A DNA stretch of 64,000 nucleotides, taken from positions 128,001 to 192,000 of the forward strand of contig OZ219872.1 in assembly GCA_964291495.2 (NCBI GenBank), in the 5' to 3' direction. A program made the position numbers and the translations under genes. This stretch comes from Dehalococcoidia bacterium. GTDB taxonomy: Bacteria > Chloroflexota > Dehalococcoidia > UBA2979. Under the pieces are notes generated by a model. It was not told the DNA's origin. It searched no databases and was given only the letters and a program-made list of their open reading frames with translations. Shown here piece by piece: positions 33,031 to 38,050 of this stretch (the stretch's first letter is position 1; each line of letters begins with the position of its first letter).

Positions 33031-33585
33031 ATCGCGAAAGAGCTGCGGGTCAACGATCAGATTCAGGTTCCGCAGGTCCGCGTGATCCGTGACACCGAGC
33101 AACTCGGCATCCTCGATATCGACGAGGCGCAGCGCATTGCCGACGAGGCGAACCTCGACCTCGTCGAGGTTGCGCCGACGGCGACCCCGCCCGTCGTCCG
33201 GATCATGGACTACGGCAAGTTCAAGTATCAGCAGGCCAAGCGCGAGCGCGAGTCGCGCAAGTCCTCGCGCCACTCCTCGCTGCGGGAGGTGCGGATGCGC
33301 GTCAAGATCGACGAGCACGACATCGCCTTCAAGGCGCGCACCGCGCGCAAGCTGCTGGGCGAGGGCGACAAGGTGAAGATCTCGGTGATGTTCCGCGCGC
33401 GCGAGATCACCCACCCGGAGGTCGGCCGCGACCTGCTCGATCGCTTCTACTCGCGCATCGAGGACGTCGCGACGATCGAGCGGCCGCCGCAGATGGAGGG
33501 CCGCATGCTCTCGATGGTCGTCATGCGCGACCCCAAGGCGGCCGCCGGTGAGGCGCCGGACGCCGCGGCGGCGTCCTCCGGGTAG
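33031..33585 (+). CDS. infC: Translation initiation factor IF-3 (ATC start)
   Basis: IAKELRVNDQI..LDLVEVAP..MDYGKFKY; in-frame TGA at 33016 and no canonical start before the conserved N-terminus. Confidence 0.95.
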   Translation: MAKELRVNDQIQVPQVRVIRDTEQLGILDIDEAQRIADEANLDLVEVAPTATPPVVRIMDYGKFKYQQAKRERESRKSSRHSSLREVRMRVKIDEHDIAFKARTARKLLGEGDKVKISVMFRAREITHPEVGRDLLDRFYSRIEDVATIERPPQMEGRMLSMVVMRDPKAAAGEAPDAAAASSG

Positions 33586-33634
33586 CTGCGGGCGCTGCTG
33601 GCCCGTAGCGCGTCCGCCTCGGTAGACTCGAACC

Positions 33635-33829
33635 ATGCCGAAGATGAAGACCCACCGGGGCACGGCGAAGCGCGTGAAGGTCACGGGCAGCGGGAAGCTG
33701 CTGGTGCGCGCCCACCACCTCAACAACAAGCGCATGAAGAAGCGCCGCGAGAAGCTGGAAGCGCTGGGCCGCATGCACGAGGTGGACAAGACGCAGCGCA
33801 AGCGCATTCGCCGGCTGCTCGGCCGCTAG
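33635..33829 (+). CDS. rpmI: 50S ribosomal protein L35
   Basis: MPKMKTHRGTAKRVKVTGSGK. Confidence 0.96.
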   Translation: MPKMKTHRGTAKRVKVTGSGKLLVRAHHLNNKRMKKRREKLEALGRMHEVDKTQRKRIRRLLGR

Positions 33830-33851
33830 CGCTCACAAGGGGTAGAGGACC

Positions 33852-34208
33852 ATGCCGCGTACGCGAAACCGCGTCGCCACGCGCGCCCGCCACAAGAAGA
33901 TCATTCGCCGCGCGCGCGGCCACCGCGGCAAGCGCCATCGCAACTTCAAGGTCGCCAACGAGTCGGTACTGCACGCCTTGCGCTACGCGACCGACCACCG
34001 GCGCGAGCGCAAGGGCGACTTCCGCCGCCTCTGGATCGTGCGCATCAACGCGGCGGCCCGCCTGCACGGCCTCAGCTACAGCCGCCTGATCCAGGGCCTC
34101 AAGCGCGCCGGCATCGAGATCGACCGCAAGATGCTCGCCGACCTCGCGGTGCGCGAGCCCGAGACCTTTGGCCGGCTCGCCGCCCGCGCCGAGGCCGCCC
34201 TGGCCTGA
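33852..34208 (+). CDS. rplT: 50S ribosomal protein L20
   Basis: FRRLWIVRINAAAR, IDRKMLADLA. Confidence 0.97.
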   Translation: MPRTRNRVATRARHKKIIRRARGHRGKRHRNFKVANESVLHALRYATDHRRERKGDFRRLWIVRINAAARLHGLSYSRLIQGLKRAGIEIDRKMLADLAVREPETFGRLAARAEAALA

Positions 34209-34232: not shown

Positions 34233-34257
34233 AACGGGGCGGCTGAGCCGCCCCGTT
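34233..34257. terminator. Hairpin between convergent rplT and the DUF169 gene
   Basis: aacggggcggc-tga-gccgccccgtt. Confidence 0.7.
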
Positions 34258-34286
34258 CGGTATTCGCTGCTACCGCGTCCCTGGCG

Positions 34287-35093
34287 TCAGTTCACCGGCG
34301 GGAAGCGCTTCATATCCTCGGCGGCGTAGCCCGCCACGGCAAGGTCGGCGCCCCCGGCCGCCTCGATCTTCGAGACGACGTCGGCCAGCTGGCTTGCCGG
34401 AATCGCGCAGGTCATTTCGGAGTTGGACATCCCGGTCCGTACACGACTGAGCTGTCAGCCAACGCTCGCGGCTGCGACTCCATGTTCCTTCGCCATCGCG
34501 ACGATGTGGCACTGCGGCTTGCCCTGCAGGCTCAGGTCCGGCAGCGCGTCGGACAGCACCATCAGCTGCCGGCCGGTGACGCGCAGCATCACCACGTCCG
34601 GGTCGATCGGCGTATCGGATAGCGGGCCGTAGGTGATCGCACCGGGCTTCTCGCTGATCGTCGGGATCAGCGGCACCACGTCCATCGTCACCCAGCCGCA
34701 CTCGAGGACCGCGGCCACGTCGGAGTTGCCCGCGACCTCATCGAGGGTCTTGAGGCCGTGCGTCAGGCTGCCGACGCTGCAGTTGCCGTGGTCCTCGGCC
34801 ACGGTCGAGAACGTGCGGTCCGTGGACTTCATCCAGAACACGCAGCCGGCCGAGACGCGGCCGGTGCGGCCGTCCTCGAGCGGCGGCGGCATCGGGTCGT
34901 CGAAAGCGTCCACGCCGTCGGGAGGCGCGTCCGAGAAGGTGATCGCGATCGGCGGTACGTCGGTCCCGACGCTCGACATCAGCCGCTGGCTGAGGCCCGC
35001 CCAGTCCTCTGTCGTGGCCATCGCCACCTCCCCATTCGCGCCGCCTCCGAAGACGCGGCGCACAAGATTCCCGAACCAGTTTCCGGTACTCAT
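34287..35093 (-). CDS. DUF169 (COG2043) protein with in-frame TGA at 34455-34457; candidate selenoprotein
   Basis: PIAITF, AGCVFW, HGNCSVG, YGPL..PDVV, PQC, then SVG-TGA-QLSR continuing 55 codons in frame to a stop at 34287; alternative start 35021. Confidence 0.8.
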
Positions 35094-35172
35094 GGCTGGA
35101 GTATGCTCCAACCTTCCCAAAATGACAAAGGCCGGAGTCCGAGGGCCGCGAGGCGCGCGCGGGAGCCGGTTC

Positions 35173-37608
35173 CTACGCGCGCTGCTCCGCGCCGTGCTCG
35201 CGCGCGAGGCGCTGGAGAATGCGCGCCTGCTCGCGGTTGGCGTCCTCGCCCGTGAGCGTGCGGTCGGGCGCCTGGTAGCGGATCGCGAAGGCGATCGACT
35301 TCTTGCCCGCGGGCAGCTGCTCGCCTCGGTAGACATCGAAGACGCGCGCCTCGGCGACCAGCCGCGACTGCTCGATCAGCGCCTGCAGCGCGCCCGCCGG
35401 GACGCCCTCGTCGACGACGAGCGCGACGTCCTGCTCCACCGCCGGGAAGCGCGGCACCGGCTCGGCGCTGCGCCGCCTGGGCGACGCCACGAGCAGCGCC
35501 GCGAGGTCCAGCTCGAAGAGCGCGACCGGCTGCTCGACGCCGAACGCCTCGAGGGTGTCCGGGTGCACCTCGCCGAGCGTGCCGACGGGCGTACCGCCGA
35601 TGCCGACGCGCGCACAGCGGCCAGCGAGCAGGCCGTGCTCCTCGGACGGCTCGTACTCGAAGGCGACGCCGAGGCGCTCGCCCAGCTCGTCGAGCACGCC
35701 CTTCGCGTCGAAGAAGCCGAGGGCGCGCTCGAGCGGGCTGCCCCAGCGGTCGCGATCTGCGCCGCAGAGCGCGCCAACGACGACCTCGCGCTCGTCGGGC
35801 AGCGGGCCGTCCGCGCCGCGGCGCGGCGCGTAGATGCGCCCGGCCTCGAAGATCGCGATCTCGTCCGCGCCCGCGCGCAGGTTGCGGTCGACCGTTTCAA
35901 TCAGCGAGTGGCGCAGCGAGGTGCGCAGCACCTCGTGTTCCGAGGAGAGCGTGTTGCGCAACTGCAGCGGCGCGTTCGCCTCCAGCTCGACGGGCGGCCG
36001 GACGCGGGCCAGCGCCTCGCCGGTGGTCAACGAGTAGTTGATCACCTCCTGCAACCCCGCGGCGGCGAGTGCGCGGTTCACGCGGTCGCGCAGCGCCGGC
36101 AGCGGGGCCGGCTCGTACGAGGGCACGCGCCCGCGCACCGTCGTTGCCGGCAGCCGGTCGTAGCCGGCGATGCGCACGACCTCCTCGGCGAGGTCGTCGG
36201 GGATCGTCACGTCGGTGCGCCACCACGGCGCGTCGACGAGGAAGCGCTCGGCCATGCCCTCCTCGCCGCCCTCGCGGGCGACCGCGAAACCGAGCGCGCC
36301 GAGGGCGGATGCGACCTCGGCGTCGGGGACGTGGAAGCCGAGCACGGTGTCGAGGCGCGAGCGCTCAAGGGCGACGCTCGCGGTGGGCTGCGGCCGCGGG
36401 TAGACATCGACCGCGCCGCGCCGCGCCGTGCCGCCGCAGACCTCGACGAGCAGCTGCGTCGCGCGCCGCGAGGCGTGGGCGGAAAGCTCCGGCGCGAGGC
36501 CGCGCTCGAAGCGCGAGGAGGCCTCGCTGCGCAGCCGCAGCCGCGTCGAGGTGCGGCGGATGCTCGCCGGGTCGAACTGCGCGGCTTCCAGCAGCACCCG
36601 CGTGGTGCCCTCGTGGACCTCGCTCTCGAGGCCGCCCATCACGCCGGCGAGCGCGATCGGCCCGCTGTCGTCGGTGATCAGCAGCGTGTCGTCGCTCAGC
36701 TCGCGGTCCTCGCCGTCGAGCGTGGTCAGGCGCTCGCCCTCGCGCGCGAGGCGCACGACGACCGTGCCCCGCAGCCGGTCGGCGTCGAAGGCGTGCAGCG
36801 GGTTGCCGAGCTCGAGCATCACGTAGTTCGTGACATCGACGACGTTGTTGATCGGGCGCTGCCCGGCGGCCTGCAGCCGCTCCTGCAGCCAGCGCGGCGA
36901 GGGCCCGACGGTGATGCCCTCGATCACCGTGGCGATGTAGCGCGCGCAGAGGTCAGGGTCGTCGATCGCGACGGCGGCGGCGTCCTCGACGGGCTCGTTG
37001 CCCTCGGAGTACTCGTCGTCCTGAAGGAGCAGCGCGGCGCCGAGGATGGCAGCGGCCTCGCGGGCGATGCCGGCCATGCTCATCATGTCGGCGCGGTTCG
37101 GCCAGGTATGCACGTCCAGCACCACGTCGCCGAGGTAGTCGGCGAGCGGCGCGCCCACGGGCGCGTCCCCGGGCAGCTCGAGGATGCCCTCGTGCTCCTC
37201 CGAGAGCCCCAGCTCGCGCTCGGACAGCACCATCCCCGAGGAATCGACGCCGCGGATGCGCGCCGCCTTGAGCGTCGCGGTCTCGCCGCTGCGCGGGTCG
37301 ACCAGCGTCGCGCCCTCGCGCGCGAAGGCGACGCGCTGGCCGGCGGCGACGTTCGGCGCGCCGCAGACCACGGTGTGCGGCTCGCCCGCGCCGTACTCGA
37401 CCGTCGCGAGCACGAGGCGGTCCGCGTTGGGGTGCGGGTCGACCGAAAGCACCTCGGCGACCGTCACCAGATCGCGGTCCCAGCCGCCTACGCGCTCGAT
37501 CCCCTCGACCTCCGCAGAGGCCATCGTCAGCCGCTCCGCGAACGCCTCGACGTCGAGGTCGTCCGGGAGGTCGACGTAGTCGCGCAGCCACTTGAGGGAG
37601 ACGAGCAT
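35173..37608 (-). CDS. pheT: Phenylalanyl-tRNA synthetase beta subunit
   Basis: MLVSLKWL, HPNADRL, VCGAPN, RPINNVVD, SSRFERG, C-terminal FDX-ACB domain. Confidence 0.97.
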   Translation of the reverse strand: MLVSLKWLRDYVDLPDDLDVEAFAERLTMASAEVEGIERVGGWDRDLVTVAEVLSVDPHPNADRLVLATVEYGAGEPHTVVCGAPNVAAGQRVAFAREGATLVDPRSGETATLKAARIRGVDSSGMVLSERELGLSEEHEGILELPGDAPVGAPLADYLGDVVLDVHTWPNRADMMSMAGIAREAAAILGAALLLQDDEYSEGNEPVEDAAAVAIDDPDLCARYIATVIEGITVGPSPRWLQERLQAAGQRPINNVVDVTNYVMLELGNPLHAFDADRLRGTVVVRLAREGERLTTLDGEDRELSDDTLLITDDSGPIALAGVMGGLESEVHEGTTRVLLEAAQFDPASIRRTSTRLRLRSEASSRFERGLAPELSAHASRRATQLLVEVCGGTARRGAVDVYPRPQPTASVALERSRLDTVLGFHVPDAEVASALGALGFAVAREGGEEGMAERFLVDAPWWRTDVTIPDDLAEEVVRIAGYDRLPATTVRGRVPSYEPAPLPALRDRVNRALAAAGLQEVINYSLTTGEALARVRPPVELEANAPLQLRNTLSSEHEVLRTSLRHSLIETVDRNLRAGADEIAIFEAGRIYAPRRGADGPLPDEREVVVGALCGADRDRWGSPLERALGFFDAKGVLDELGERLGVAFEYEPSEEHGLLAGRCARVGIGGTPVGTLGEVHPDTLEAFGVEQPVALFELDLAALLVASPRRRSAEPVPRFPAVEQDVALVVDEGVPAGALQALIEQSRLVAEARVFDVYRGEQLPAGKKSIAFAIRYQAPDRTLTGEDANREQARILQRLAREHGAEQRA

Positions 37609-37621
37609 GCGGCGGGCCTCG

Positions 37622-38050
37622 CTAGAACTGGTCGAGCAGGATGGCGTTGCCATCCGGGTCTTCGATCACGATGTGCGCAGGGCCCTCGTCCTCGGTGGCC
37701 GGGAGCGCTACCGAGGGGTCCTGGCCGTCCGGCATCTCGTGCAGCAGCTCGGTCTCGAGGCCGCGCTCGGCGAGGCGGCTCTGGACGGCGCGCACGTCGG
37801 GCGGATTGAAGGTCAGGATGTTGCCCTCGAACATCCCCTCGAAGAGGCCGATCATCGCGCCGCCCTGGCGCATCATCAGCCAGCCCTCGCCGCCGCCGAG
37901 CGGCTCGAAGCCGAGCTGCTCATAGAACGCCTGCGAGACCGCGAGGTCGCTCACCGACAGGCTCACCGAGAAGTAGCCGAGGTTCGGGTCGCCCGCCGGT
38001 GGCGGCTCGGGCGCCTCGATGTCGCCGGCTGTCGGGTCGGCTTCGGACAT
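37622..38050 (-). CDS. VOC/glyoxalase family protein
   Basis: SLSVSDLAVSQAFYEQLGF...EDPDGNAILLDQ. Confidence 0.85.
   Translation of the reverse strand: MSEADPTAGDIEAPEPPPAGDPNLGYFSVSLSVSDLAVSQAFYEQLGFEPLGGGEGWLMMRQGGAMIGLFEGMFEGNILTFNPPDVRAVQSRLAERGLETELLHEMPDGQDPSVALPATEDEGPAHIVIEDPDGNAILLDQF

Follow-up and report, generated by a model that had tools for sequence, protein, structure and literature searches.

A DUF169 reading frame with one internal TGA

We examined a 64,000-nucleotide (nt) stretch of DNA from a Dehalococcoidia bacterium (GenBank assembly GCA_964291495.2, contig OZ219872.1, positions 128,001 to 192,000), here called the window, in which positions are counted from its first letter. 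Its minus strand carries a gene of the DUF169 family (PF02596) with a TGA codon inside its reading frame, downstream of pheT (35173-37653) and convergent with rplT (33852-34208). The frame runs from an ATG at 35093 to a TGA stop codon at 34289-34287 and contains a single internal TGA at 34457-34455. When read with translation table 11, the open reading frame (ORF) ends at this codon, as ...AASVG-TGA. With TGA translated as selenocysteine (Sec, U), the frame runs on beyond ...AASVG as QLSRVRTGMSNSEMTCAIP...KRFPPVN, so that the continuation to 34287 claimed in a preliminary description of this DNA was borne out. The coding frame so read (34287..35093, minus strand) specifies 268 amino acids from ATG 35093 or 244 amino acids from a second candidate start, ATG 35021, and the internal TGA (34455..34457), the proposed Sec codon, corresponds to residue 213 in the long form and to residue 189 in the short one. 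Residue numbers below refer to the long form.

DUF169 proteins are widespread in bacteria and archaea. The family assignment, which had been made from the letters of the sequence, was confirmed by a Pfam match to PF02596 over residues 38-241, spanning residue 213 (E 1.1e-17, 65.1 bits against a cut-off of 27). This match covers profile positions 2-208/209, and a genome-wide profile search gave an identical outcome, with a single DUF169 match in the whole genome. No NCBIfam model matches the protein. Public gene calls stop at the TGA and list proteins of 212 (P0003), 188 (P0014) and 237 (P0122) amino acids.

TGA alternates with cysteine codons among relatives

We searched 41 related genomes with the read-through protein and obtained matches in 23. 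Every one of the 19 genus genomes, that of the window included, has the DUF169 gene, and the codon at the site is TGA in 11 of these 19 species genomes and TGC or TGT in the remaining eight. The codon was read in 20 colinear orthologous loci, 19 from the genus and one from another genus. TGA occurs in 11 of them (G000, the window's genome, G001, G002, G004, G005, G009, G010, G011, G012, G014 and G017), and TGC or TGT in nine (eight from the same genus and the one from the other genus). The context is constant in every locus read, ASVG[U/C]QLSRVRT, and within the genus both codon forms sit between pheT and rplT.

Comparison with the orthologues that have cysteine (Cys) at the site (for example L025-L033; database proteins P0004, P0005 and P0021, each named 'DUF169 domain-containing protein') reveals the same PF02596 family, the same length and 72-80% identity, together with the motif ASVG-C-QLSRVRTGM and, within the genus, the pheT and rplT neighbours. 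These Cys forms differ in having TGC or TGT in place of TGA, and their codons past the site are G/C-ending and variable. The 18 other genus genomes all have SelA, those of Cys-form species among them, and therefore the Cys forms are not due to a lost Sec machinery.

In the wider family, whether 26 or 40 members are aligned, Cys fills 90% or more of the site column, with an invariant Gly in the column before it and an invariant Arg four residues after. The 40-sequence alignment has invariant P193, G212 and R217, while C84, W87, H102, C105, H112, C195 and C213 are conserved at 90% or more. The motif S-x-G-C-x-x-x-R, which the preliminary description had given for DUF169 proteins, is thus present at the expected place.

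The segment past the TGA remains a protein-coding sequence

Judged from its substitution pattern, the segment past the TGA is under purifying selection, with a ratio of nonsynonymous to synonymous substitutions (dN/dS) of about 0.12-0.26. Compared with L087, a TGA form from a metagenome contig, this segment has dN 0.146 and dS 1.21, and compared with L021 it has dN 0.053 and dS 0.205. Relaxed selection downstream of the TGA, which had been named beforehand as a sign that would speak against Sec, was not observed. Synonymous sites between the window's gene (L014) and L087 are saturated, with 136.5 of 178.2 differing. No second stop codon or frameshift was found in any of the 12 TGA forms, that is, the 11 of the genus and L087.

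The eight codons from the TGA to the next ATG encode QLSRVRTG and are separated from the Cys forms by five synonymous changes. The amino acids are unchanged relative to Gly-bearing Cys forms such as L026, with Ala in place of Gly in four of the nine Cys forms. Since QLSRVRTG has been kept through synonymous changes only, a restart product from the ATG at 34430 is argued against.

A conserved RNA element follows the UGA

The preliminary description had placed a hairpin 16 nt after the UGA, and this hairpin, GGAC[CGGGAU]GUCC, was recovered at +17 to +30 (34425..34438, minus strand; loop start +21) as a candidate for the apical part of a Sec insertion sequence (SECIS). It is identical in 12 of the 12 TGA forms and is the sole helix predicted in both lineages, the same-genus clade and L087. 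The hairpin and its 5' flank CGUGUAC make up a block of 23 nt (34423..34445, minus strand, +10 to +32) that is invariant in all 12 forms. No other invariant run in the gene is as long, and 37 of 5000 codon-column shuffles reached this length. The 11 TGA forms of the genus differ at 138 of 807 positions. Their longest invariant run, a block of 56 nt (34408..34463, minus strand), begins 6 nt ahead of the TGA and extends to +47; 51 of 5000 such shuffles reached its length. Both runs are located at or just after the TGA.

Some codons of the 56-nt block end in A or T, which is unusual in this genome. The G+C content at third codon positions (GC3) of codons +1 to +13, set against that of the whole gene, is 0.69 versus 0.91 in the window's gene, 0.62 versus 0.49 in L087 and 1.0 versus 0.96 in the Cys form L026, and GC3 after the TGA opposes the genome trend in both lineages. 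The two inner pairs of the hairpin exist through changes to G at +18 and to U at +28; the Cys forms have C at both positions and cannot form the hairpin. Over +8 to +46, the Cys forms are about as stably folded as the Sec forms.

According to the legend of Fig. 2 in a review of prokaryotic selenoproteomes, the bacterial SECIS (bSECIS) model has a loop of 3-9 nt, an upper stem of at least 4 base pairs (bp), a G at loop position 1 or 2, a distance of 16-37 nt between UGA and loop and an energy of -7.5 kcal/mol or lower; the same source states that some genuine SECIS elements fail the model (PMC13188914). The DUF169 hairpin agrees with the geometry, having a 6-nt loop, CGGGAU, with G at position 2 and again G after it, a 4-bp stem and a spacing of 20 nt. 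The SECIS-like character proposed for it thus holds for geometry and for identity in the 12 TGA forms, and fails for energy, to which we return below.

A longer stem, GUCGU/AUGAC (+8..+12 with +40..+44), had also been suggested. It can form in the window's sequence but is not conserved, and we rejected it as a shared element since it is broken in L087, where +9 is C. The CGGA/UCCG helix was rejected in the same way, being broken in L087 at +36. Together these two helices belong to a fold found only in the same-genus clade, with GUCGU/AUGAC as its lower stem, CGGA/UCCG in addition and an apical loop AUGU of 4 nt, closed by an inner GG/CC stem, with G at neither of the loop's first two positions. 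On the strength of nucleotide conservation, a conserved RNA element exists after the UGA and is rightly placed, the hairpin being a candidate for its structure.

The genome encodes the Sec machinery and other genes with in-frame TGA

We found selA (424.9 bits), selB (301.7 bits, cut-off 242) and selD (368.3 bits) in the genome, all above curated cut-offs, and a tRNA-SeC with anticodon tca. A lack of this machinery, which the preliminary description had listed among possible objections to Sec, is hence not the case here. The selD gene has its own in-frame TGA, in CGG-U-AGKLG, and a gene for an fdhA-like molybdopterin enzyme has one in NRT-U-HAPSVAG; both lie outside the window (G000 C5:1608812-1609747 and C6:619418-620689). 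Screening the genome by GC3 for frames joined across a TGA yielded 356 candidates. Most were noise, but the screen led to genes of the UGSC family (NF041046), which were then confirmed. There are five matches to this family, one of them above the cut-off, each having its single in-frame TGA within a D/C-U-GSCT motif (G000 C2:105602-106030, C5:177816-178247, C2:42611-43042, C6:241503-241934 and C5:543754-544203, all outside the window). Because the Sec machinery is present and TGA occurs within the selD, fdhA-like and UGSC genes, the organism already uses UGA for Sec in other genes. TGA serves as a stop codon too, including at the end of the DUF169 gene.

Like these in-frame-SECIS genes, the DUF169 gene has UGA at a Cys position and then a hairpin whose loop begins some 20 nt past the UGA; close to the start of the loop there is a G that is followed by G or U. 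The hairpin loops of the other TGA genes start at +18 to +20 (+34 in selD) and read GUG, GGUCU or CGUGAU: GGUCU belongs to the fdhA-like gene, and a hairpin with loop GUG or CGUGAU, starting at +18 to +20, stands behind each UGSC gene. The loop CGGGAU of the DUF169 hairpin is one letter from the CGUGAU of a UGSC-family gene in the same genome.

Distribution and origin of the TGA form

Across the taxonomic family, an orthologue was found in 42 of the 99 genomes searched, with TGA at the site column only in 11 genomes of the genus (g1); for this count, the codon was read in the 20 loci described above and the remainder was taken from tabulated internal-stop counts. A profile search of the phylum found DUF169 in 115 of 401 genomes, with the unpublished genome G077 counted there as an ordinary match and used for no other claim, and TGA only in the window's genome. 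The corresponding search of the class found DUF169 in 177 of 401 genomes and, among the 150 matches listed, one further TGA, in G586. In this paralogue (L088, G586:C7, locus position 1042) the TGA column is Arg in 8 of 17 covering relatives and Cys in none. We rejected it as a Sec codon on these grounds, and its probable cause is an assembly error or a nonsense change from CGA to TGA.

We also scanned one genome per species, 185,579 species in total, with a degenerate DNA pattern for S-x-G-TGA-x-L-S-R-x-R-T-G-M. The 20 matches comprise 11 true DUF169 TGA forms and nine chance matches. The 11 come from Dehalococcoidia or Chloroflexi metagenome-assembled genomes and one 'uncultured bacterium', and they largely overlap the 11 species of the genus, so the two sets are not independent. 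A scan of metagenome contigs gave one match, L087, which has the TGA and shares 196 of 241 residues with the window's gene (81%). Both motif scans reach only forms with x-L-S-R-x-R-T-G-M after the UGA. As an observation apart, the GC3 of L087 is 0.49 and that of the window's gene 0.91, a large compositional shift between close relatives.

Public sequencing data contain the same codon. Contigs that bridge the TGA come from one DNA run and from two RNA-library runs of different studies, with no difference over 34354-34472; the RNA-library contigs cover only 34410-34606 and 35004-35118. The earlier concern that the TGA might be unique to this assembly, with TGC in all relatives, is answered by its occurrence in 11 of 19 genus genomes, in L087 and in these three further runs. 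The stretch 34250-35120 was found in 24 listed public runs from several studies, 11 of them labelled as sponge metagenomes and two as coral reef metagenomes, which suggests a marine, host-associated habitat for the genus.

In a maximum-likelihood tree of 26 proteins, three branches part in a trichotomy: L087, the 11 Sec forms and the eight Cys forms of the genus. Since 23 nt are identical in the Sec forms and the wider family has Cys, the sequences argue for a single origin of the Sec form from a Cys ancestor. The Sec form would have arisen from a Cys form within one Dehalococcoidia lineage, with the chromosomal locus unchanged. As far as the genomes and metagenomes were searched, the TGA form appears restricted to this one lineage.

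Decoding of the TGA

The pairing of TGA with Cys codons, the Sec machinery and the selection on the downstream segment support the preliminary proposal of Sec at the TGA. We consider it very probable from these comparisons that the codon at 34457-34455 is decoded as Sec, yielding one full-length DUF169 protein with selenium in place of sulfur at the Cys of S-x-G-C-x-x-x-R. The recoding mechanism would be the ordinary bacterial route. Sec-tRNA(Sec) would be made by SelD and SelA and then delivered by SelB, which would be held at the short in-frame RNA element 10-32 nt past the UGA, with GGAC[CGGGAU]GUCC as its core. The prototype of an in-frame SECIS read by SelB is that of E. coli fdhF.

A number of results weigh against this conclusion. 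The energy of the hairpin is -4.8 kcal/mol, or -6.0 kcal/mol with a lower stem, compared with the bSECIS limit of -7.5 kcal/mol. Its stem has 4 bp (-3.3 to -4.8 kcal/mol), whereas the stems behind the fdhA-like, selD and UGSC genes have 6-10 bp (-6.3 to -15.2 kcal/mol). The preferred fold of the window's sequence is a different one, the clade-specific fold described above, at -11.4 kcal/mol and with pair probabilities of 0.66-1.0, which is not formable in L087. The fold energy of a 71-nt segment is not better than that of shuffled sequences (z -0.49) in this G+C-rich background, and an Rfam scan of 34300-34560 with E up to 10 gave no SECIS family, the matches to Chloroflexi-1 (11.9 bits) and radC (11.0 bits) being at chance level. 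The element is common to all 12 TGA forms by descent, and so there is no covariation. The RNA-library contigs may derive from contaminating DNA; they demonstrate the presence of the sequence and are not proof of transcription. The tree as drawn needs two Sec/Cys changes, and its well-supported branches permit one origin but do not show it. Finally, the functional reading given in the next section comes solely from the conservation of residues and from the predicted secondary structure.

Of the competing explanations, a true stop fares best, although we regard it as very unlikely. It would leave a DUF169 protein cut short at 212 or 188 amino acids, with the downstream part either untranslated or made as a separate 47-amino-acid peptide from ATG 34430, as in a split gene. 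Public gene calls do end at the TGA, an ATG-started ORF of 47 amino acids does occupy 34430-34287, and the SECIS-like hairpin is weak. However, a split would lose the invariant R217 and QLSRVRTG, yet the segment keeps the family sequence through its five synonymous changes. The break would also have to coincide exactly with a Cys that is nearly invariant, and this in a genome whose Sec machinery is complete, and no split occurs among the Cys-form relatives. Plain termination leaves the nucleotide invariance of 23-56 nt after the TGA unexplained.

Translation through the UGA without Sec, in which a near-cognate tRNA inserts Cys or Trp, or Cys is carried on tRNA(Sec) at low selenium, seems to us more improbable still. 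The genome has a dedicated tRNA-Sec with SelA, SelB and SelD, and the conserved element is located where the other TGA genes have their hairpins. A general reassignment of UGA is contradicted by the TGA codons that end the DUF169 gene and other genes. What speaks for this explanation is that the computed data do not tell which residue is inserted and that close relatives tolerate Cys at the site.

The idea of a decaying pseudogene, in which a TGC-to-TGA nonsense mutation became fixed in one clade, needs one base change and has a seeming parallel in the G586 paralogue, whose Arg-aligned TGA looks like such damage, but it is the least credible of the three, given that 11 species have kept the TGA, as has a lineage whose synonymous sites are saturated against theirs, that none of the 12 forms has a second stop or frameshift, that downstream dN/dS is 0.12-0.26, that a promoter-like site upstream of the gene is conserved, and that ORFs on the opposite strand over the downstream region are without support.

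The DUF169 family and the putative role of residue 213

We used AlphaFold2 (AF2) with the 40-sequence alignment to explore the structure of the protein, and the model has a mean predicted local distance difference test (pLDDT) score of 93.3 and a predicted template modelling (pTM) score of 0.87. The conserved Cys residues are each predicted to lie just before a helix: C84 before 85-89, C105 before 106-111, C195 before 196-204 and U213 before 214-220. A sequence search of the PDB gave no real match (best E 0.58), and Foldseek found no resembling solved structure in the PDB (best E 0.05). In the wide VIA-align comparison the best Z was 4.5, and the thiolase and ketosynthase-like rows, at Z 3-3.8, were too low for use. 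A search of the ESM Atlas with the Cys homologue P0005 returned DUF169 clusters only; when DUF169 was skipped, GGGtGRT (PF14057) was returned at 0.90, which we treat as a lead only.

Neighbouring genes gave no functional clue, being pheT and rplT in the genus and, in another genus, genes for a CheR-type methyltransferase and a MaoC-like hydratase. In passages of published work, DUF169 adjoins a TauE/SafE-type exporter in Desulfovibrio alaskensis G20 (PMC4001038), is among YedE-linked genes in Slackia (PMC5322559) and is occasionally found beside SepRS in archaea (PMC8762117). These literature neighbours are leads rather than tests, and hint at sulfur or selenium handling.

A residue at which Sec and Cys are naturally swapped is usually a catalytic redox, nucleophilic or metal-ligand residue, and we therefore nominate residue 213 for mutation and assay. 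From the model and the alignment, we suggest with low confidence that it may be a reactive nucleophilic, redox or metal-ligand centre; the redox or metal-binding role put forward in the preliminary description is likewise a proposal. More broadly, and tentatively enough that we would rather expect it to need revision, DUF169 might be an unrecognised enzyme or carrier family in which the S-x-G-[C/U]-x-x-x-R centre acts with C84, C105, C195 and two conserved His residues, in sulfur or selenium handling or in metal-dependent redox chemistry.

The preliminary description did not place DUF169 among the standard selenoprotein families, and the searchable literature agrees. A full-text search for DUF169 with selenoprotein found DUF169 nowhere called a selenoprotein, supplementary tables being outside the search, and there was likewise nothing for PF02596 and nothing for COG2043 with selenocysteine. 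DUF169, PF02596 and COG2043 are also absent from the text, including the family table, of a 2026 review of prokaryotic selenoproteomes (PMC13188914). DUF169 is thus probably not catalogued as a selenoprotein family. The text of the same review contains selenoprotein families of a similar kind, DUF166, DUF523, DUF1573, DUF1858 and DUF3179, which are also uncharacterised and have the Sec/Cys pair as their main functional clue, but which carry other Pfam or NCBIfam accessions (PMC13188914).

If our reading of the TGA is true, DUF169 would join the selenoprotein families, with residue 213 as its likely reactive centre. On the broader view of DUF169 as an enzyme or carrier family, the Sec form would be its first selenoprotein and would give the first direct hint at where the active site lies. 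For these Dehalococcoidia, counts of selenoproteins would be too low by at least one gene, because public gene calls truncate the DUF169 protein at the TGA. The element after the UGA, short, weak and strictly conserved, would offer a test case for the minimal size of a bacterial SECIS.

Start codon, promoter and flanking features

The start codon is ambiguous between ATG 35093 and ATG 35021. A promoter-like site, TTGTCA-17 nt-CATACT (35100..35128, minus strand), ends 7 nt before ATG 35093. It was the one promoter-like site found in a promoter scan, against a shuffle mean of 0.0, and the -10 box and site are kept in 11 of 11 TGA-form genomes, with the sequence farther upstream diverged. The 7-nt spacing from ATG 35093 suggests either a leaderless mRNA or a leader of 72 nt. 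A Shine-Dalgarno-like GGAGG (35027..35031, minus strand) lies 5 nt upstream of the alternative start, ATG 35021-35019, and the Cys-form orthologues start at the Met equivalent to ATG 35021. The 24-codon N-terminal extension between the two candidate starts (35021-35093) has the pattern MS.....LVRR, which is present also in the Cys-form database protein P0002. Residues 1-24 have low model confidence in AF2 (pLDDT 56-58).

Past the stop codon, a G+C-rich hairpin (34233..34257, minus strand) is followed by GTTTG and has a terminator-like appearance with a short T run. The terminator that had been proposed to follow the gene is therefore supported as far as the hairpin at 34257-34233 is concerned; a terminator scan returned 0 terminator-like sites, as the T run behind this hairpin is too short. 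Beyond it, the infC-rpmI-rplT cluster (33082-34208, plus strand) is convergent to the DUF169 gene, and the listed infC ORF starts with GTG.

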